Below are positions 3,283-24,352 of a stretch of DNA of 57,004 nt, one piece after another. The stretch comes from a virus (lineage: Duplodnaviria > Caudoviricetes): IMG/VR virus record IMGVR_UViG_3300024999_000122, positions 1 through 57,004 of that record; one strand, 5' to 3'. The notes below the pieces were generated by a model. It saw nothing but the letters and a program-made list of their open reading frames with translations, was not told the DNA's origin and ran no database searches. Numbering within the stretch: position 1 is the first letter of the stretch; every line of letters begins with the position of its first letter. Position numbers and translations under genes: made by a program.

Positions 3283-3747
3283 ATGGACTACTTGGAAGAG
3301 TTAGAAGCTATACAGACATGGATTAAGGCGGCTGCTAACTTGAATTCGTACCGTCTTAAAGAAGCGAAGCCAAAAGTATCCAGGCCCGTAATATTATGGG
3401 AAAACCCCAGCAGGCAACCCCCGCGAAACCTAAGCCAGTACCAGTATGTGGTTAATGTCAGACAGTACGGGCGCTTATTTGTTAGCAGCCTGGACGAATC
3501 ACTAAGCGCCCAGGAAACGCTTACTAAGGATTTGGCCAATAAATACGGGGTACTGCCTATAAAGGTAGACGGAGTACAGGTAGGGCTACTTAAAGAAGCA
3601 CAGATCGAGTTTACAAACAGCGAAAGCCTGGACGTACCTTTTAGCGTGAGCTACGAAGTAACGTACGGCAGAACAAGGCCAGTAGTTCCGCCACCAGCTA
3701 CCGTAGTTACTACCAGGTATAAAATAGACTTCGACGACACGAATTAG
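3283..3747 (+). CDS. Putative tail terminator/completion protein
   Basis: 154 aa; immediately upstream of the sheath gene. Confidence 0.55.
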   Translation: MDYLEELEAIQTWIKAAANLNSYRLKEAKPKVSRPVILWENPSRQPPRNLSQYQYVVNVRQYGRLFVSSLDESLSAQETLTKDLANKYGVLPIKVDGVQVGLLKEAQIEFTNSESLDVPFSVSYEVTYGRTRPVVPPPATVVTTRYKIDFDDTN

Positions 3748-3767: not shown

Positions 3768-5165
3768 ATGGCAGGAATATACCTAGAGGGAACGAGCAAA
3801 GTATTAAGCGGGGTCTATACCCTTATACAGGCGGCCGTTACACGGGTTACGATGGGTGCCAGGGGCATAGTAGCGTACCCGTTTACGTCGGACTGGGGGC
3901 CTATTAATAGCCTGGAAACGGTTATAATGGCCAGCGAGTTTAAGGCAATGTATAACGGGGCTGCTACAGCGTTAACCGCCGCCAAAGTCTACAAGCACGC
4001 TTTTAGCGGGAAGCCCCAGCGGGTCCTAAGCTACCGTATGGCTACAGGATTAGCAGCCAAAGGGACGGCGGTACTAGACGACGTGGAAAGCGCCCCGTCT
4101 TTAACCCTGGCGACGTTATACGAATCGGCCAGGGCCTTTACAGCTGTAGTTAAGGCCGGAACCAGCGGCGGCGTAATTGTAGAAATACTAGAGGGAGCCG
4201 TGAAACTTGTAAGCGTTGAAGGGGCTACGGTGGCAGATCTGGCGGCTAAGTTAAACGTCACGGATTACGTAAGGGCTACGGCGGGTACAACTTTACCAGC
4301 CGTTACAGCGGGGGTAGCCTTCGCTGGGGGTAACAACGGGTCTGTAGCGACGACCACGGAGTACGAAGCCTTTTTAGACGAACTAGAAGCGGACGGCACG
4401 CCTTCGGCCTTTAGCCTGGACGCAGTAAGCGACGACACGATACTAGCCACGGTTAGAACGTGGGTTACACGTGTTAGGGAAGAAGGCATTTACATTACCT
4501 TCGTACAGGGAGGCCCGACTGGCTGGGATGTCACTATAGCCGACGCTAATACCAAGTCGAAGTCCGTAAACTACAAGGGCATTATTAACGTAGGTAACGG
4601 GGTAGACGGATATACGGCCGCAGAGATGGCTATATTTATAGCCGCCCGCGTCGCCAGTGTCGCCCTTAATATGACACTGACTGACGAAATAGCCCCGTAC
4701 GTCGCCGTTAACAAAAAACTTAAGCCAGGCGAGCGAGTGGTAGCTAAGGAAAGCGGTACCCTGGTATTTGTCCAGGACGGTAGCGTAGTGCTTATTGACG
4801 AGGGAATTAACACGTTAACCGTGCCGCCAGCTGGCGAGGTAGTCGAATTCGGTAAGATCAGAATTAATAACGCCCTGGACTATATAGCCAAAGACCTGGA
4901 GAAGTTCGGCGACGAGTACAAGCGTACCCGTAGTAATACCCAGGAAGCCCGCGAAACATACGCGGCAGCGGTAGAAACCAGCTACCTTAAGCCCCTGGAA
5001 ACTTTAGAAGTTATCCAGGACGGCTATTTCTACCGACCAGACCCAGACTACCACGGTAAAGATGCAGTATTCACGCCCAAGATTGACGAAGCCTATTTCT
5101 ACGGCGACATTACGCCAGTAGACAGTATGGAACGTCTGTATCAAAAAATCGGCGTACACTTTTAG
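3768..5165 (+). CDS. Tail sheath protein (XkdK-like)
   Basis: 465 aa; 'GARGIVA.P..SDWGP', 'GINTLT', 'KIRI', 'PVDSMERLY' sheath motifs. Confidence 0.92.
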   Translation: MAGIYLEGTSKVLSGVYTLIQAAVTRVTMGARGIVAYPFTSDWGPINSLETVIMASEFKAMYNGAATALTAAKVYKHAFSGKPQRVLSYRMATGLAAKGTAVLDDVESAPSLTLATLYESARAFTAVVKAGTSGGVIVEILEGAVKLVSVEGATVADLAAKLNVTDYVRATAGTTLPAVTAGVAFAGGNNGSVATTTEYEAFLDELEADGTPSAFSLDAVSDDTILATVRTWVTRVREEGIYITFVQGGPTGWDVTIADANTKSKSVNYKGIINVGNGVDGYTAAEMAIFIAARVASVALNMTLTDEIAPYVAVNKKLKPGERVVAKESGTLVFVQDGSVVLIDEGINTLTVPPAGEVVEFGKIRINNALDYIAKDLEKFGDEYKRTRSNTQEARETYAAAVETSYLKPLETLEVIQDGYFYRPDPDYHGKDAVFTPKIDEAYFYGDITPVDSMERLYQKIGVHF

Positions 5166-17719: not shown

Positions 17720-18685
17720 ATGAGAATGACAAGTAAAGCGCGGTTATGCGAGCGGGCTAACAAGATTATCGACGACTTTCAGGTAGTAACTGAACGGCTT
17801 TTTACCCTTCGCGACCAGGGTAAAATTACAGGCGGCTGCCTAATGGTTTACAACTGGAACAACACTTATTACGAAATGCTAAGCAAGGTTGTGTACCCGA
17901 CTTCAAAAGGTTACAAAAATACCACTGAATCAGAAATAGGGGTATTAGTTAAGCTTTACGAAGCTGAACGCGTAAAGGCCCTGGCCTTTGTCGAAGAACA
18001 AGAAGCCGCTACCATGGAAACGTGCCAAAAGGCCCAGGTAGAAGCTGAGCTAGCCGCCACTACCGCCGTAGAAGGTGCGGAAGTTATGACATTCTGCGAA
18101 ATGCACAAGGCTAGCGGCGGCTGTGAAGAGTGCCCTAACCGCTACGTATGCGAGGACAGCCCACTAAAGACCGTGCCCCAGAAGCCCGAAGCAGACGCGG
18201 CCGCCGAAGCCGAAAAGAACAAGGCTAAGAACTTTCTTGTAGGTTACTACGTCGTCAAAGAAGACGAGGTATTTACAGACAACGGTTACGCGTGCGCGGC
18301 CTGGTTTAAGAAAATCCTAGTTAAAGCTGGAAGATACGCCGTAATGGCCGGCCAGTATAGCTACCACGAACGCGACAAGTATTACATGGATAAGCTGGCC
18401 GACCGTTCCCTAAGCGTTAAGCTGCCTGGTACCGTCGTAGCTGCTGACTTCCAGGGGCGCTACTTCGGGAAACCTATAGGCGGTAGCGACGACGCCAGTA
18501 AAAAGTACCTGGGGGAAACGTCTAGCATATGCCTAAGCCCGTACGCCCACGCTACAGCCCTGGCCATACTGGAAGGGACCAGCAGCATAGAACTACTTCC
18601 AGAATTCGAAGCCAGAGAAATACCGTTCGAGTACGAAGGTAAGCCGAACAAGACCTACGGGATATTTAGAAAGGCAGGCGTTTAA
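17720..18685 (+). CDS. Hypothetical early protein
   Basis: 321-aa ORF with RBS; central Cys cluster (CEMHKASGGCEECPNRYVC). Confidence 0.7.
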   Translation: MRMTSKARLCERANKIIDDFQVVTERLFTLRDQGKITGGCLMVYNWNNTYYEMLSKVVYPTSKGYKNTTESEIGVLVKLYEAERVKALAFVEEQEAATMETCQKAQVEAELAATTAVEGAEVMTFCEMHKASGGCEECPNRYVCEDSPLKTVPQKPEADAAAEAEKNKAKNFLVGYYVVKEDEVFTDNGYACAAWFKKILVKAGRYAVMAGQYSYHERDKYYMDKLADRSLSVKLPGTVVAADFQGRYFGKPIGGSDDASKKYLGETSSICLSPYAHATALAILEGTSSIELLPEFEAREIPFEYEGKPNKTYGIFRKAGV

Positions 18686-18686
18686 C

Positions 18687-18875
18687 ATGATTAAGCCTGC
18701 AAGCATTAAAAACGGGGAGCTAGTTACCGAGAAGTACAAGGAACGGGTAAGGCCTTTTAGGAAGCTGGTAGAATGGAACTACCGAGACGTAAACGGCAAT
18801 CTACACGCTGGAGTAGCGCCGTCGCTGGAAGTTGCGGAAGAAAGGGCCGCTAAGCACGGGTACGTTAAGCCATGA
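18687..18875 (+). CDS. Hypothetical protein
   Basis: Coupled ORF in early operon. Confidence 0.6.
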   Translation: MIKPASIKNGELVTEKYKERVRPFRKLVEWNYRDVNGNLHAGVAPSLEVAEERAAKHGYVKP

Positions 18876-19222
18876 AGAAACGTAAGCCGCCTAAGAACAT
18901 GGTTTACTACTCCAGTCAACTTACCCCAGGAGGAACCCAGGTACTACCCGTTAAACCGTTATGGCTTATAGATTTCCCGGAATCCCCAAAGTATAGGTTT
19001 TTCCTTTATCACAGTGAAACCCAGCACGCCTACTTTGTCCTGGAAGTAACTACGGGTATGGGCGTGTCAAGTAATAAACCCGCTACCCAGAAGGACGCCC
19101 TGGAAAAGGCGGCTGCTAACCTAAAGCTATACGCCGCCGACTTCGACAAGATCGTAGCTGACTTTATCAAAAAGCACGGGGCCGCCCCTAGTCCCCATAA
19201 GGAGGAACCAGAACAATGTTAG
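18872..19222 (+). CDS. Hypothetical protein
   Basis: ATGA overlap with upstream ORF. Confidence 0.6.
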   Translation: MKKRKPPKNMVYYSSQLTPGGTQVLPVKPLWLIDFPESPKYRFFLYHSETQHAYFVLEVTTGMGVSSNKPATQKDALEKAAANLKLYAADFDKIVADFIKKHGAAPSPHKEEPEQC

Positions 19223-19533
19223 ACGACCAACTACTAAGGGAGTTTGTGGACCTGGTAAAGGTAGCGGGCAGGGGTACCTTACACCCTGCCCAGGCAGCCA
19301 CGGCAGAAAAACTAGAGCAGGAAATACTTAGGCGTATGGCCTACAAAGTAGAACCCCACGAAGTAAGCCTACGTGTGTACCATATGCGGCACGCTGAACG
19401 ACGTATAGGGGAAATAAGCCTGAGTATAGCTGGCCTGGACAAGAGAATAGCCAAGGAGTACGACGACCTGGTACATGAGATACGACGGCTAGAACACGAA
19501 ATGACCAAGATACTAGAAGGAGGTAAAAGGTAA
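19216..19533 (+). CDS. Hypothetical protein
   Basis: RBS AAGGAGG; helical ORF. Confidence 0.6.
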   Translation: MLDDQLLREFVDLVKVAGRGTLHPAQAATAEKLEQEILRRMAYKVEPHEVSLRVYHMRHAERRIGEISLSIAGLDKRIAKEYDDLVHEIRRLEHEMTKILEGGKR

Positions 19534-19802
19534 TGGCAAAGGGTAAACCAACAAACGGTGCCCCACTTGTAAACCTTAATAGCAAGGTAACCCCAGAAAC
19601 GAAGGCCCTTATAGACGCGCTTATAGGGATAGGCAGCCCTGGTATAGGCAGCGTTCGGGAATTAATCGAAGAAGCCTTAAAGCTGCTGGAGAAGGAACGG
19701 CCCGACGACATGGCCACGGCCCGTAAATTCATGGAACTTTTAGGGTCTACGCAGGATCGGCGGAAGTACAAAGACGGCACCGCTAAAAATATTTTGCAAT
19801 AA
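19533..19802 (+). CDS. Putative ribbon-helix-helix regulator
   Basis: 'VNLNSKVTPETKALIDAL...SVRELIEEALKLL' strand-helix-helix pattern. Confidence 0.6.
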   Translation: MAKGKPTNGAPLVNLNSKVTPETKALIDALIGIGSPGIGSVRELIEEALKLLEKERPDDMATARKFMELLGSTQDRRKYKDGTAKNILQ

Positions 19803-19814
19803 AGCGGCAGACGT

Positions 19815-19844
19815 GCATATTTTAGGGTACCCAGATCATACGCT
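19815..19844 (+). promoter_or_regulatory. sigmaE-like sporulation promoter 1
   Basis: gcATA-N17-CATACGCT; fits the B. subtilis sigmaE consensus ATA-N16-18-CATAcanT. Confidence 0.6.
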
Positions 19845-19849
19845 ATAGC

Positions 19850-19937
19850 GTGAGCGCAGCTAAGCGGTAGCGACCATAAGCAAAGTATACCCAGGGCAAA
19901 AAGCCAGGCGAAGTTAAATACTTCCCTGGCTTTTTTG
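19850..19937 (+). ncRNA. Candidate small RNA (about 90 nt)
   Basis: Lies between the sigmaE-like promoter and a strong terminator; no RBS-led ORF. Confidence 0.35.
19898..19937 (+). terminator. Intrinsic terminator
   Basis: aaaaagccagg.gaagt / acttccctggcttttttg. Confidence 0.8.
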
Positions 19938-19945
19938 TCGTTTAA

Positions 19946-19975
19946 GCATAAAACGGACCCCCAACGCCATAAGAT
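19946..19975 (+). promoter_or_regulatory. sigmaE-like sporulation promoter 2 (drives 20006-24352 operon)
   Basis: gcATA-N17-CATAAGAT about 30 nt upstream of the 20006 start. Confidence 0.6.
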
Positions 19976-20005
19976 GTAATACGACTAAAGGCAGGAGGGG
20001 GTAAG

Positions 20006-20209
20006 GTGGAACGTAAGGTAGTTTATGACGTATCTTTTAAGTTACGACCAGGGCGCGACGACGATATAGCGCAGGCACTAGCCCGAATACCTACATACTT
20101 CGACCGTAGCGACGTACTGAGGGACGCCCTAAGACAATACTACAACCTAGAGGGAACCAGGCCAGAACTTCGGGTTAGCGTGTTATCCAGTATACCAGAG
20201 CGCCTATAA
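20006..20209 (+). CDS. CopG/ribbon-helix-helix regulator
   Basis: 'VSFKLRPGRDDDIAQAL..DRSDVLRDALRQYY'. Confidence 0.7.
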   Translation: MERKVVYDVSFKLRPGRDDDIAQALARIPTYFDRSDVLRDALRQYYNLEGTRPELRVSVLSSIPERL

Positions 20210-20241
20210 ATGGCGTCGCTACGACCACTAAACCCAGCAGC

Positions 20242-20316
20242 CTAGAAGTTAAAAACCGCAGGGGCACCGTAAGCCATCAACGCAATTCCTACCGCTATCT
20301 TTATCAGAGCAGCCAT
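20242..20316 (-). CDS. 24-aa hydrophobic peptide MAALIKIAVGIALMAYGAPAVFNF (not in ORF track)
   Basis: Minus-strand ATG at 20316 with AGAAAGGA RBS 10 nt upstream; single transmembrane-length helix. Confidence 0.6.
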   Translation of the reverse strand: MAALIKIAVGIALMAYGAPAVFNF

Positions 20317-20350
20317 TAGCTACACGTCCTTTCTGTTTAGGTTACGAACT

Positions 20351-20380
20351 TAGTATTAGCTAAAGCCTAGAAGTTTATAC
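20351..20380 (-). promoter_or_regulatory. sigmaF/sigmaG-like forespore promoter for the peptide
   Basis: Minus strand reads GTATA-N15-GCTAATACTA (sigmaF spacing), equivalently GTATA-N18-AATACTA (sigmaG spacing). Confidence 0.5.
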
Positions 20381-20415
20381 ACGGGGTTAGAATTTTATTT
20401 AAAGGGGGTCGTACA

Positions 20416-20871
20416 ATGTTAGTAAAAATTAATGGGATTACACGGACCTACGCCCCGCCCGTAGCCGTGGAGGTTATCGAAGTGCAGGACCTTTCTCTTA
20501 CTACCCTGGGACGTATAAAGCGCCACGTAAGACAGAACTACCGCGCTTATTTAACGGCGGGCTACACATTCGCGCTAATAGCTCACCCTAGCATAGCCTT
20601 AGCAGCTGGAAGCAGCGGTGGCATACGTCTAATACTACTAATGCAGAAAGCTAGTTTCTGGGTAGGAATGGGCGTAACCATATGGGGCATAGTAGAAGCC
20701 CAGCTAGATTACCCAGGCTGGAAAAGTCGTGTACTTAAGGGCGTACTGGGGTATATCGGTATTTTATTGGTGCCCCTGGTATTCCTGGAGCTACAGAACA
20801 GCCTACAGGTAGACGTATGGGGCCAGATCGAAGAAGCCACTAAGAAACCGTTGCCCCTCCAGCCCCAGTAA
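20416..20871 (+). CDS. Membrane protein, TrbC/VirB2 pilin-like layout
   Basis: Basic leader, cleavage-like 'HPSIALAA', then two hydrophobic helices. Confidence 0.5.
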   Translation: MLVKINGITRTYAPPVAVEVIEVQDLSLTTLGRIKRHVRQNYRAYLTAGYTFALIAHPSIALAAGSSGGIRLILLMQKASFWVGMGVTIWGIVEAQLDYPGWKSRVLKGVLGYIGILLVPLVFLELQNSLQVDVWGQIEEATKKPLPLQPQ

Positions 20872-20882
20872 GGGGCGCTACG

Positions 20883-21599
20883 ATGGTAAAGGTTACGTCT
20901 GAATTCGGGGCCATTGACAACATGCACAGTAAACCCCATAGCGGCACAGACATAGCCGTACCGAGTGGTACGCCGATAACTAGCATAGGGTACGGGGTAG
21001 TCGAAAGTACGCCAGACTTTGGGGATGAGAACATAGGTAAGGGCGTCATAGTCAAACAGGCCGACGCTACCGTAACGTATGGGCACTTTTCGGAGGTTAA
21101 AGTAGTCAAGGGGCAGCCAGTAGCCAAGGGTACAGTTCTGGGGTTATCGGGTAGCACGGGCCACAGCAGCGGGCCACATTTACATTTACAAGTAACCCAG
21201 GGCGGGAAGCTGGTAAACCCCGAAAAGTATACCCAGCTAACAGCTGCCGTAGCAGGCCCAGGAGCGCCGCAGCTGCCGAAGCCTGCCGAAGGTATAGACC
21301 TTATGGGGGCGGTAAGCCTGGGCCTGCTGGTAGTCTTAGTATTAGCGTTCGTAGGGGGTAAGCGTATGGTCTTTACGCCTATATCGGTAATAGTAATGGT
21401 AGTAGCCCTGGTATTCTTCGGCCCGTCGCTGTGGCAGGCCACGGGCGCACTGTTTAAGGCGGGCTATTTAGATGTCCCTATGATACTGGCTACGATAGGC
21501 GCCATATGGTTATGGCAATTCGGAGCCAAATTTCCGAAGCGTTTACTGTTCTGGGGCTGGTTAATATTTTGGGCATTAAGGGGGTTGGTATTCGCATGA
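20883..21599 (+). CDS. M23/LytM peptidase with C-terminal multi-pass membrane domain
   Basis: 'HSGTD' (HxxxD), 'YGH', 'GSTGHSSGPHLH' (HxH); about four hydrophobic helices at the C-terminus. Confidence 0.88.
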   Translation: MVKVTSEFGAIDNMHSKPHSGTDIAVPSGTPITSIGYGVVESTPDFGDENIGKGVIVKQADATVTYGHFSEVKVVKGQPVAKGTVLGLSGSTGHSSGPHLHLQVTQGGKLVNPEKYTQLTAAVAGPGAPQLPKPAEGIDLMGAVSLGLLVVLVLAFVGGKRMVFTPISVIVMVVALVFFGPSLWQATGALFKAGYLDVPMILATIGAIWLWQFGAKFPKRLLFWGWLIFWALRGLVFA

Positions 21600-24352
21600 T
21601 CGTAAGAATTAACGGACGGGAAGCCTGGGTAATAGTCACGGAGAAAGTAGCAGAGATTAAAACCGACGTACAGCCACAAAAAGGGCCTTCTAAGCCTTTA
21701 AACCTTAAGACGGCAGTAGAACGTATCAAAGTGGCCGTAAAAGATCAGAAACTAATAGCCTGGCGTCCAGACGACTACGTTACGTATGAACTTACCCCGA
21801 CGTCTAGCGTTAAAAATACCCAGGCTTATGTACTGGCCAAAGTAGTAGCCAGCTTCTACCGCCAGACCGAGGAACTACGGACCTGGGACTTTAGCAGGAA
21901 AACAGCGCTTTTTACCCTTGGTAAGCAATACAGAATTAACTTTAGGGTAGTATTCACGAAGGATACCATACGTTTTTACTTACTCGTACCACGGGCCAGG
22001 GCTGCCGAGATCATGCGTAAGGCCGAAAGCGTCTACCATGAGAACATAACCGTACAGGAGGTAACCGAACCGCTGCCACAGATTGACGTTACACGGGCTT
22101 ACGGGTCCGAACTGACCTACCGAAAGCACGACATATTTAGCCTGGACACGGACAGAGGAAACAGCTACCCGCTGCCCAGCCTATTAACAGCCGTAAGGAC
22201 ATTAGAGGGCGACGACCTGGCCGTATTTGACACGATGCTAGAGCCTACCGACCGTAAGGCCTGGGAGCAGGCAGCGGCCAAGGCCCATAAACAGCTGGAG
22301 AATGGCCAGATACCCAGGCACGGGCTTAAGTTACTACAGAAGGTAGACGAAGTATTTAACGCTTTACGTTGGCAGTTGCTAGAACTGGCAGCGTTTACCC
22401 CACAGCATAAACGGCAGCTTAAGCAGCGCAAGAAGGAGGAAAACAGGTACCAAGAAGTAAAAAGGATAATGGACAATATGACCACTTCCACGAAGCGAAA
22501 AGCCGCTGACGACGTATTAAACACGTGGGTACGGATAGCAGCCCACAGTGATAGTCCAGAACGGGCAAAAAGCGCGGTGAAAACTCTAGCGAACGCCTGG
22601 AAGGACTTAAGTGCTGATAACCAGGTAGACGTCGTGGCTATAACGCCGAAATGGACTGCGTTCTTTATCGAGAGCATAAACAAGCGTAGGGCCTTTAGTA
22701 TTCGTATGCGCCCCTTAAAACTATCTACCGAAGAAGCGGGAAAGTTTATGCAGCTGCCAGGCGACTACCTCATAAACGAATTCCCACAAATACAGTCTAG
22801 GAAGTTTAAAGACGTAAGCGTACCGAAGGAACTAACCCAGGACGACGTAAAAGGCATACGGGTAGGCGTCGTTACTGAACGAGGTACCCGCCAGCTGGTA
22901 AAAATGCCCCTGGAAGCCTACGAAGGGGTAAAGCTTAAAGAAGTCTACGACGCGGTATGTACTGGGACGTTTGGCCAGGGCAAGCAGGGTACTGGTAAAA
23001 CGGAAGGCTTCGGGACCGTCACGGCCTACGACATGATCGTAAACGGCTTTAGTGTCTTGGCCATAGCTACCGACGACGGCGAAGGCCTGCGGAACCTTAT
23101 AAACTCGTTACCCGAAGATTACCCAGACGACAAAATACACGCCCTAAACTTCGACAATAAAGCCTGGCCTATAGCGTGTAACTGGTCAGACATTTACGGC
23201 CGTACCTTTGCCCAAGGCGACGCAGAACTACAAGCGCTGGAAATATCCGAGCGTATAACCGACCGCTTTATACAATTCGTAAACAGCTTAAGTAATACGG
23301 GCGACTTTACCGACCGTATGGCCCAGTACGTCGTTAGCTGTATGCGTGCTATAACCAAAGTAGCAGACTGGTCATTCCTGGACCTAGAACTAGCCCTAAC
23401 ATCCCCAGCGTACCGCGCCGAACTACTCCAGCTGGAGGCGGTTAAGGAAATGCCCGAAGTGGCCCATGATTTACAGACGTTACAGGGTAGGGCAGAAGCA
23501 GGCAAAGACGGCGAAATAGTAAACCCTATCTTAAGCAGGGTAAAGGCCCTGGCTGGTACCCAGTTTATGGCTAACCTGTTTTACCAGGACCCGAAGCGAA
23601 ACGACGACGGCAGCCCCACGTTAGACCTACGGCGTATAATGGATAACCCAGAAGGCAGCTATGGCCACGTCGTCGCAATTTACGCAAGCGGGGACGCGTG
23701 GAACGATAACCAGGCTACAATACTGGGCTTTATGTTAGACAAGATCAATTTTAACGCGTTTAGCCGCGTGGACGTTTCGCAAGATCAGAGAAGGCCAGCC
23801 CTGGTATGGATAGACGAACCCCATAAGGTAATTAAGTCCATGGAAGATAAACTAGCAGGTACCGCCGTGGAATTCCGTAAGTATCGAATAAAGAACCTTT
23901 TCACGGGCCACAGTATCGACCAAATGGGGAAAGCCGCGAACAGTTTGCTAGACGGCGGTGCCCAGGTAATAAGTTACAAGACAGAGCGCCTAAGCGAGTT
24001 TACACGCTTCGCCCATAAGTTCGCCCCGTACGACGACGCGGCAGCCCTATACGAAGCCCTACCCGAAAAGTGGCGGGCTATATGCAGCCTACGTCTACCG
24101 AGCGGTAAAACGTGCCCCGCGTTCCTGGCTGATATGACACCGCCACCTGGTAAGATCAAAGACAGGGCCGAAGCCTGGCAACGATGCGCCGAAAAGTACG
24201 GCAGGCCATGGAAGGAGGTACGGGACGCGATACAGGGTAAACGTGCTAAGTACCAGGCCCTTAACTACGAATGGACAGCCGACAGGAAGGCCGAAGCCCT
24301 GGCAGCGAAAGCCGAAGAAAAGGGATTACTTAAACAGGCTAAAGCCAAGTAA
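21596..24352 (+). CDS. VirD4/TraG/HerA-like P-loop ATPase
   Basis: Walker A GKQGTGKT, Walker B VWIDEPH, 'EFRKY...GHSIDQ' motif; ATG 21596 overlaps upstream stop and follows an RBS. Confidence 0.75.
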   Translation: MIVRINGREAWVIVTEKVAEIKTDVQPQKGPSKPLNLKTAVERIKVAVKDQKLIAWRPDDYVTYELTPTSSVKNTQAYVLAKVVASFYRQTEELRTWDFSRKTALFTLGKQYRINFRVVFTKDTIRFYLLVPRARAAEIMRKAESVYHENITVQEVTEPLPQIDVTRAYGSELTYRKHDIFSLDTDRGNSYPLPSLLTAVRTLEGDDLAVFDTMLEPTDRKAWEQAAAKAHKQLENGQIPRHGLKLLQKVDEVFNALRWQLLELAAFTPQHKRQLKQRKKEENRYQEVKRIMDNMTTSTKRKAADDVLNTWVRIAAHSDSPERAKSAVKTLANAWKDLSADNQVDVVAITPKWTAFFIESINKRRAFSIRMRPLKLSTEEAGKFMQLPGDYLINEFPQIQSRKFKDVSVPKELTQDDVKGIRVGVVTERGTRQLVKMPLEAYEGVKLKEVYDAVCTGTFGQGKQGTGKTEGFGTVTAYDMIVNGFSVLAIATDDGEGLRNLINSLPEDYPDDKIHALNFDNKAWPIACNWSDIYGRTFAQGDAELQALEISERITDRFIQFVNSLSNTGDFTDRMAQYVVSCMRAITKVADWSFLDLELALTSPAYRAELLQLEAVKEMPEVAHDLQTLQGRAEAGKDGEIVNPILSRVKALAGTQFMANLFYQDPKRNDDGSPTLDLRRIMDNPEGSYGHVVAIYASGDAWNDNQATILGFMLDKINFNAFSRVDVSQDQRRPALVWIDEPHKVIKSMEDKLAGTAVEFRKYRIKNLFTGHSIDQMGKAANSLLDGGAQVISYKTERLSEFTRFAHKFAPYDDAAALYEALPEKWRAICSLRLPSGKTCPAFLADMTPPPGKIKDRAEAWQRCAEKYGRPWKEVRDAIQGKRAKYQALNYEWTADRKAEALAAKAEEKGLLKQAKAK

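Follow-up and report, generated by a model that had tools for sequence, protein, structure and literature searches.

A predicted membrane microprotein gene with a forespore-type promoter, conserved in Elmenteitavirus-like phages and prophages of spore-forming Bacillota

Introduction

A sigmaG-driven prophage gene (sspC), small sporulation proteins and phage microproteins are all known already. What appears to be new in the locus described here is a conserved, probably membrane-bound phage microprotein whose gene has a forespore-type promoter and is tied to an operon coding for an ATPase that resembles those of type IV secretion systems (T4SS). This gene, which we will call the peptide gene, was found on the minus strand of the IMG/VR virus record IMGVR_UViG_3300024999_000122 (Duplodnaviria; Caudoviricetes). 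The stretch analysed, referred to as the window, is the complete virus record of 57 kb (57,004 nucleotides, nt), in which every sizeable gene lies on the plus strand. No published description of the peptide surfaced in our literature searches, the full text of the descriptions of the nearest named phage, Bacillus phage vB_BboS-125, being outside their scope.

The closest described systems resemble this locus in different respects. As described in PMC8270828, the gene sspC of SPbeta is prophage-borne and transcribed by sigmaG within the sporulation programme of the host; here, the use of sigmaG is predicted from the promoter, the geometry of which also matches that of the host genes for small acid-soluble spore proteins (SASPs). 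SspC itself is a soluble, DNA-binding SASP (PF00269), whereas the peptide described here is a hydrophobic helix without a family, linked to a membrane/ATPase operon. The type I toxins of Bacillus subtilis (TxpA, BsrG, BsrE, BsrH and YonT) are, like our peptide, small hydrophobic prophage peptides convergent with and overlapping another transcript (PMC10730256), but they are longer, carry a charged C-terminal tail and have a vegetative or stress-type promoter instead of a forespore-type one. SpoVM (26 amino acids, aa) and CmpA, according to the same source, are very small as well, are produced in sporulation alone from the promoter of a sigma factor confined to one compartment, and work at the membrane of the forespore, much as is predicted for the peptide. 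However, they are host genes controlled by sigmaE, in the mother cell, and their products are amphipathic or soluble, while the peptide is phage-encoded, uniformly hydrophobic and preceded by a forespore-type promoter; the Pfam and NCBIfam scans revealed no likeness in sequence between it and SpoVM or CmpA. Finally, the phages Eldridge, SP10 and Goe3 plug into forespore transcription by means of the sigmaF/sigmaG-like factors that they encode (PMC9429907), whereas the phage in the window has no sigma factor and carries the target promoter instead.

Conservation and coding character of the peptide gene

The original prediction, made from the letters of the window and a list of its open reading frames (ORFs), had proposed a gene for a small hydrophobic peptide, with a ribosome-binding site and a GTATA-N15-GCTAATACTA element ahead of it. 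All three elements were confirmed at 20242-20380 of the minus strand (Table 1), and the comparison with related loci has borne out the gene itself, which is present in 15 of 15 loci and shows a coding pattern of substitutions. These loci had to be reached indirectly. A tblastn search with the 24-aa peptide against 50,697 phage records returned nothing, and the neighbouring 151-aa protein was used as bait instead (in IMG/VR, species genomes and metagenome contigs), one further locus (G163) coming from a genome search with a peptide profile. After removal of duplicates, 14 related loci remained, making 15 with the window. The nearest named phage is vB_BboS-125 (Elmenteitavirus), and the loci borne by prophages belong to Paenibacillus xanthanilyticus, P. 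methanolicus (two), P. aurantiacus, P. planticolens and Halalkalibacter flavus. A hidden Markov model (HMM) built from nine of the peptides matched all 15 loci, window included, with E values of 1e-10 to 1e-15, in every case on the strand opposite to the 151-aa gene and immediately upstream of it, and a DNA pattern scan added a 16th locus of like kind. The genomes sampled with the peptide profile, about 850 in total, gave matches in two of 401 class-wide, three of 401 Paenibacillaceae and one of 49 in the family of the genome G002, all of them operon-bearing loci already counted; no copy of the peptide away from the operon was found in these genomes. The peptide gene belongs to one lineage, that of Elmenteitavirus-like phages and prophages of spore-forming Bacillota (Bacillus/Halalkalibacter and Paenibacillus).

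The family members are 21-26 aa long, with the consensus MPFVxIAVGxAMMIWGAPAVF(GG), and the alignment of nine peptides shows no variation at the initiator Met, G10, M14 or G17. They are all strongly hydrophobic, with a grand average of hydropathy (GRAVY) of 1.4-1.9, and their length suffices for one helix across a membrane. Translation would begin at ATG in 13 loci and at TTG in two, each preceded by a Shine-Dalgarno (SD) motif at a constant spacing, in the relatives an AAAGGA(A/G)GTG-like motif at the spacing seen in the window. Searches of Pfam, NCBIfam and PHROGs with nine family members gave no match below E 0.02, the strays being DUF3185 (0.021) and CD1871A (0.045). Among 5.8 billion predicted proteins there was a single match to the peptide, without a name, and the deposited annotation of vB_BboS-125 is blank at its position. 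In this last phage (locus L003) we have also noticed a second hydrophobic ORF of 23 aa (MITAAAFYFIVALLL..., 3622-3693, minus strand), which lies one base past the peptide stop, overlaps the end of gp18 and was not seen at other loci.

The pattern of substitutions indicates how the ORF has been constrained. In the window and its four closest relatives, the variable columns over the 19 shared codons are distributed 4/0/16 among the first, second and third codon positions. Between the window and these relatives the proportion of synonymous differences (pS) is 0.51-0.96 and that of nonsynonymous differences (pN) 0.03-0.05, the figures for all pairs of 14 sequences being 0.74 and 0.27, and the DNA flanking the ORF is only 56-67% identical. 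This comparison shows that the peptide ORF is under selection as a protein. A purely RNA-level role, i.e., an antisense RNA without a peptide, has been ruled out because of the same third-position substitution pattern.

The end of the gene can also be recognized in most relatives. A GC-rich hairpin followed by a T-run starts 11-26 nt past the peptide stop in nine of the 15 loci, and in four Paenibacillus loci this hairpin bears A- and T-runs on both sides, as expected for a two-way terminator. In L021, L022 and L013, the final codons of the convergent gene, read in antisense, make up the hairpin that terminates the peptide gene; one stretch of DNA is there coding sequence on one strand and terminator on the other. 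With its conserved promoter and ribosome-binding site and, in most relatives, a terminator of its own, the peptide gene is kept as a compact unit, and taken together these data argue that it is a real, independently transcribed micro-gene.

The original prediction regarded this as the only convincing minus-strand ORF and as an antisense gene, and both statements have to be narrowed. A survey of small ORFs (12-70 aa, with an SD-like motif upstream) in the 22 gaps between plus-strand genes recovered three on the minus strand, among which the peptide ORF is the sole strongly hydrophobic one (GRAVY 1.68); the larger minus-strand ORFs of the window had no match in PHROG. As for its being antisense, the plus-strand ORFs on either side (20006-20209 and 20416-20871) leave a gap of 206 nt (20210-20415), and the peptide ORF sits inside it without overlapping any coding sequence in the window. 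It is antisense only to a possible read-through transcript and not to a coding sequence. The proposal that opposite strands of the same DNA are read in two compartments is not supported in this gap, the two strands having no coding DNA in common.

The promoter of the peptide gene

Both sigmaF and sigmaG are forespore-specific. In B. subtilis, the consensus given in Table 4 of PMC3416734 is GTATA (-35) and GGNAANAMTR (-10) for sigmaF, GNATA and CAWAMTA for sigmaG, TYATATTT and KCATANANTN for sigmaE, and KCACM and GCATANNNTA for sigmaK. The usual sigmaF spacer is 15 nt according to PMC5942855, and PMC3789822 describes a C at the purine position of the sigmaF -10, plus a terminal A, as typical traits of sigmaG promoters. 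The 85 nt upstream of each peptide gene were scored against the consensus of each sigma factor. These consensus sets are those of B. subtilis applied to other genera, a transfer that is supported by the host SASP controls described below.

A common arrangement, GTAT[AG]-N18-xAxAxTx, was found 29-43 nt ahead of the start codon in 13 of the 15 loci, with a spacer of exactly 18 nt in all 13. The -35 is GTATA in the window and eight other loci and GTATG, with one mismatch, in four Paenibacillus loci, while L025 and L016 deviate. The -10 is perfect for sigmaG in 11 loci (CATACTA, CATAATA or CAAAATA), and the window (AATACTA) and L013 (CATAATG) have one mismatch there. Over the 11 specified positions, the sigmaG mismatches number none in seven loci, one in six (among them the window), two in L025 and three in L016. 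The fit to sigmaF, over 13 positions, is also close, with one to three mismatches in 14 loci (one in the window, L013 and L004) and five in L025; in L016 the sigmaF fit, with two mismatches, falls at the same position as the sigmaG fit with three. The fits to sigmaE, sigmaK and sigmaA have three to seven mismatches at inconsistent places. Along these lines, the mean frequency of the major base across 12 non-redundant loci is 0.95 in the -35 block and 0.90 in the -10 block and only 0.47 in the spacer (0.47-0.55 when the flanks are included).

As a reference for a genuine sigmaG regulon, we have used the alpha/beta-type SASP genes (PF00269) of five prophage-carrying host genomes, whose dependence on sigmaG is established (Nicholson et al., 1989, as cited in PMC8270828). 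At no more than one sigmaG mismatch, we recovered 16 of these 30 host genes (nine perfect), 13 of the 16 sites being located 26-35 nt from the start codon, and 13 of the 15 peptide genes (seven perfect). The same threshold was reached by only two of 67 plus-strand genes of the window, none of them perfect, and by 11 of 2000 random 85-nt stretches of it. The complete genome of vB_BboS-125 (58.5 kb) contains, on both strands together, a single perfect GNATA-N17-19-CAWAMTA, the one ahead of the peptide gene, and the same is true of a complete IMG/VR relative with terminal repeats (59.7 kb) and of a 13-kb fragment.

The prediction of a forespore-type promoter, sigmaF or sigmaG, has therefore held up by comparison, the family consensus fitting sigmaG and the window copy fitting both factors with one mismatch each (a C changed to A in the -10). 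The promoter of the family looks sigmaG-type, having a terminal A and a C where sigmaF prefers A, with the window copy equally compatible with sigmaF. We consider the match to be beyond chance because the ORF, the ribosome-binding site and the promoter blocks are all kept at the operon position across the related loci, and not because of the window match by itself. A phage-encoded sigma factor reading this promoter was rejected for the window, in which Pfam scans and six-frame searches for PF04542 and PF04545 found no sigma-70-family gene, and a host sigma factor would therefore have to read it.

Two further sets of promoter-like sites in the window deserve a mention. Four perfect sigmaG sites lie on the minus strand inside plus-strand genes (53638-53610, 50966-50937, 38474-38445 and 21593-21565), against 0.10 expected and with none of 300 dinucleotide shuffles reaching four; they have no perfect counterparts in the complete relatives G819 and G820 and may be either chance or phage-specific antisense forespore promoters. 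On the plus strand, the 67-aa gene convergent with the peptide gene is one of the two plus-strand genes that reached the threshold above, with GCATA-N17-CATAAGA at 19946-19974, 31 nt ahead of its GTG start (one sigmaG mismatch). The geometry of this site is as in the peptide promoter, and the relatives have no intergenic region at that place.

The neighbouring operon

The features of the locus are collected in Table 1. Scans of its surroundings added little, with only two noise matches in Rfam over 19700-20500 (E 2.7 and 4.3), no tRNAs, and nothing relevant in a simple sigma-70 and terminator scan of 19500-20700.

Table 1. Coordinates of the peptide gene, its signals and the adjoining features in the window.
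Feature	Position	Strand	Evidence or remark
Peptide ORF, 24 codons plus TAG (20244-20242), ATG at 20316, product MAALIKIAVGIALMAYGAPAVFNF	20242..20316	minus	
Ribosome-binding site AGAAAGGACGTG, long Shine-Dalgarno match, 6 nt from the ATG	20323..20334	minus	
-10 element, sigmaF reading, GCTAATACTA after a 15-nt spacer	20351..20360	minus	
-10 element, sigmaG reading, AATACTA after an 18-nt spacer	20357-20351	minus	
-35 element GTATA	20376..20380	minus	GTAT[AG] at the matching place in 13 of 15 loci
Strong hairpin between an A-run and a T-run, terminator-like	19895..19938	not assigned	-34.3 kcal/mol, z -3.3
67-aa gene, convergent with the peptide gene, homologue of vB_BboS-125 gp18	20006..20209	plus	alignment
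151-aa membrane protein, first gene of the divergent operon	20416..20871	plus	alignment; homologue in 14 of 14 related loci
M23 peptidoglycan endopeptidase, hydrophobic C-terminal half	20883..21599	plus	Pfam PF01551, E 1.8e-23
P-loop ATPase resembling TrwB/TraG/VirB4-type T4SS ATPases	21596..24352	plus	Walker motifs by eye; Atlas

The order of the peptide gene (minus strand), the 151-aa gene and the M23 gene is kept in all 14 relatives, though the genes upstream differ, and the ATPase is present in all 12 loci whose contigs reach that far. The 151-aa product is a small two-helix membrane protein, and its resemblance to TrbC is a weak lead from the Atlas (score 0.85). The M23 product is a cell-wall peptidase anchored in the membrane. 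The ATPase, of about 920 aa, has a Walker A (GKQGTGKT) and a Walker B motif (VWIDEPH), both read by eye. A start at 21506 gives the longest ORF (948 aa), which shares 94 nt with the M23 gene; the start given in Table 1 is probably the real one, since the Atlas record begins at residue 31 and the two genes then overlap by ATGA. In the Atlas this protein falls near clusters with PF10412 (TrwB_AAD_bind), PF01935 (DUF87) and PF26449 (DUF8128), with a feature score of 0.98 and a structural TM score of 0.65-0.75. Direct comparison gave no Pfam or NCBIfam family and no PDB sequence match below E 0.3. The likeness to T4SS ATPases comes solely from the Atlas and is to be taken as a lead, not as a family assignment.

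The ATPase has distant homologues (20-25% identity) in 58 phage records, SPO1 (gp27.4), SPP1, CP-51 and TP-84 among them; all 58 are either phages of Bacillus, Geobacillus or Lysinibacillus or deep-sea thermophile phages. The SPO1 block gp27.9-gp27.3 is the described arrangement most similar to the operon. There, gp27.4 (23% identity, E 4e-37) comes after small hydrophobic proteins and after a protein with a C-terminus like that of gp18, which in the relatives is the homologue of the 67-aa gene of the window. The ATPase is flanked on one side by a partition protein and three small hydrophobic proteins and on the other by a nicking replication initiator. In contrast to our locus, SPO1 has no M23 peptidase, no homologue of the 151-aa protein and no match to the peptide HMM. 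In another phage, Bacillus phage vB_BpsM-61 (L057), an annotated Spo0E-like sporulation regulator (4996-5139) is found two genes past the homologous ATPase, which would be another tie between this module and sporulation.

The 67-aa gene on the other side of the peptide gene has a homologue in five of the 14 relatives (tblastn) and no family match; a DNA-binding, ParR-like role of its product is something that we can only infer. In vB_BboS-125 and one relative, the homologue directly follows an annotated actin-like partition gene. In the window, tblastn with the ParM-like proteins of both relatives found no partition-gene homologue (no match below E 0.9). We have tried the 321-aa gene (17720-18685) as the counterpart of the ParM-like gene and rejected it (BLASTP E 10 against gp17 of vB_BboS-125, and no PDB sequence match). 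The whole of 17720-19802 contains four to five genes (321, 62, 116, 105 and 89 aa) with no Pfam or PHROG match.

The operon had been described in the original prediction as sigmaE-like, and this part is not supported. No consensus for sigmaE, sigmaK, sigmaA, sigmaF or sigmaG recurs on the operon strand at a consistent place in the 15 loci, the best having two to five scattered mismatches. Upstream of the operon in particular, the best sigmaE/sigmaK matches have three to five mismatches, that of the window overlaps the start codon of the 151-aa gene, and no such promoter is conserved in the 15 loci. A sigmaE-like match was located farther away, at 19815-19845 of the plus strand (GCATATTT-N13-TCATACGCTA, two mismatches of 15 specified positions), with the strong hairpin of Table 1 within about 50 nt downstream. 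The interval 19815-19938 (plus strand), where Rfam has no match, suggests a short non-coding RNA of about 85-90 nt.

A second micro-gene was detected just ahead of the 151-aa gene, this one on the operon strand, in nine of the 14 relatives by ORF lists or tblastn and in two more by eye (e.g., L002 2924-3011, L003 3837-3924 and L013 2353-2442). It would code for 27-30 aa (MFSF.VYMG...KGG(R/K)K), with one helix and a basic tail, a shape typical for type I toxins and holin-like peptides. It is absent from the window at 20380-20415, in what looks like a clean deletion.

Possible role of the peptide

The explanation that we favour starts with the forespore RNA polymerase of the host, which would read the peptide promoter. 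Synthesis of the peptide would then take place inside the developing spore, and it would insert as one helix into the forespore membrane, a location that we propose because of the promoter class together with the hydrophobic composition. Its conserved small-residue face (G10, M14 and G17) would suit helix-helix packing, and the membrane proteins that the neighbouring operon encodes may be its targets or its partners. At the same time, transcription of the peptide gene in the forespore would run against any read-through from the upstream gene and dampen the operon in the spore. A wall-degrading, DNA-handling machine would in this way stay silent for as long as the spore carries the phage genome. 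Plus-strand transcription is free to run across the peptide gene in the window and several relatives. As a whole, and drawn as it is from sequence, we would give this explanation an even chance of being right. Its components differ in this respect. Expression in the forespore, as judged by the promoter class, is probable, while a functional link between peptide and operon, for which the strict linkage is the argument, is a tentative proposal that we would sooner expect to fail than to hold.

A number of observations weigh against this explanation. The window holds five sigmaF and 18 sigmaG sites at no more than one mismatch, and its peptide promoter taken alone is no better than the other 17; moreover, its -10 (AATACTA) is mismatched at the first position. 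Two of the 15 loci, L025 and L016, fit sigmaG poorly. The loci are related, and 13 of 15 is not the same as 13 independent events, the argument being that the blocks are conserved while the spacer has diverged. Read in reverse complement, on the operon strand, the -10 block (TATTAT/TATAGT) looks like a sigmaA -10, with no -35 beside it, and part of the conservation of the block could serve that strand. No hairpin was found directly past the peptide stop in the window or in L023, L025, L016, L007 and L004, leaving the window copy without a terminator of its own; the next terminator-like element on its minus strand is the hairpin listed in Table 1. Synteny is the sole basis for the link between peptide and operon. 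There is a co-variation, in which the peptide C-terminus (GAPAV/SQAY) changes together with a V/I position in the second helix of the 151-aa protein (14 of 14 loci), but it contains just two or three independent contrasts on the M23 tree (sign test p 0.5) and is explained equally well by the adjacency and linkage of the genes. Structure prediction for a complex in which the peptide joins the 151-aa protein and the C-terminal M23 half was uninformative either way (score 0.01).

Among the other readings, the one that fares best shares the promoter evidence in its entirety. The peptide could be made in the forespore as a spore-membrane conversion factor unrelated to the operon, altering germination, resistance or the state of the membrane. 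There is a precedent for a prophage-borne sigmaG gene in the sspC of SPbeta, as described in PMC8270828, and a terminator of its own in nine of 15 loci gives the gene the look of a self-contained cassette. A free-standing moron would nonetheless be expected to move, while this gene stands beside the 151-aa/M23 operon in all 16 loci and was not seen anywhere else in the about 850 genomes searched, and we find the reading unlikely, if still worth keeping in mind.

The likeness to a forespore promoter might also be incidental, with the peptide expressed in the lysogen or in vegetative cells, for example for superinfection exclusion or to modulate the machine, from a weak sigmaA promoter consisting of a -10 only. 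CATAAT or TATAAT-like hexamers do occur within the -10 block in most loci. Moreover, when a phage genome is coded on one strand, a lone gene on the other is typically a moron expressed from the prophage; in the Paenibacillus loci, an S24-type repressor-like ORF, seen by eye, lies some 1.3 kb upstream of the peptide gene and is read in its direction. Yet the best sigmaA matches have three to five mismatches of 12 at inconsistent positions, no TG-extended -10 was seen by eye, and a sigmaA promoter would have no use for the GTAT[AG] that is strictly kept at exactly 18 nt. On balance such a vegetative peptide seems to us rather improbable.

The original prediction had also considered a type I toxin silenced by the overlapping plus-strand transcript, a pair like txpA, bsrG, bsrE or yonT in which the antisense RNA would be the plus-strand read-through or the overlapping 3' end of the convergent gene. 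A small hydrophobic one-helix peptide on a phage or prophage has the right aspect for such a toxin, the 3' end of the peptide gene overlaps the convergent gene in several relatives, and in the window a transcript from the gene at 20006 would cross the peptide gene, there being no terminator between them. Several observations speak against it. The peptides have no charged C-terminal region, ending in FNF, FHF, FGG, FG, AYL, AYF or, in L025, FGE with a single acidic residue; the window mRNA is no more structured than shuffles of it (z 0.15), with the SD open; no promoter for a dedicated antisense RNA recurs on the opposite strand; and the two-way terminator of four Paenibacillus loci blocks plus-strand transcription from upstream. 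With regard to length, BsrH, at 29 aa, stretches the range of the B. subtilis toxins to 29-59 aa. Against the 30-59 aa given for them in PMC10730256, the peptides measure 21-26 aa. This idea has lost ground with the comparison, and we now think it quite improbable.

Last, the conserved blocks might be an operator for a phage DNA-binding protein such as the 67-aa one, the peptide being expressed by another route, as could be read from the short inverted repeat that GTAT and ATAC form about 20 nt apart (by eye) and from the small putative DNA-binding gene adjoining in five of 14 relatives (tblastn), but the blocks fit all 11 specified sigmaG positions in seven loci, are kept in loci without the 67-aa homologue and stand at the distance from the start codon seen in host SASP genes, which an operator does not explain, and this is the most improbable of these readings.

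To return to the explanation that we favour, it can be extended to a more speculative one. The operon products, together with the actin-like partition protein of the relatives, might form a machine by which phage DNA is moved across the sporulation septum or anchored at it, so that the spore takes the phage along, with the peptide as its forespore-side gate or off-switch, marking or sealing the spores that hold a phage and silencing the machine until germination. We regard this as a long shot. If true, this temperate phage would possess a dedicated 'virospore' programme encoded in its genes, and the peptide gene would be the only one entrusted to a forespore sigma factor.

Implications

Gene callers miss the peptide gene. 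The class of its promoter can be assigned by comparison with the SASP genes of the host itself, without RNA data. If the promoter reading holds, the peptide would be a phage-encoded membrane microprotein made specifically inside the developing spore, and a single ORF of 70 nt with its one promoter would provide a handle on the behaviour and carriage of a temperate phage during the sporulation of its host.

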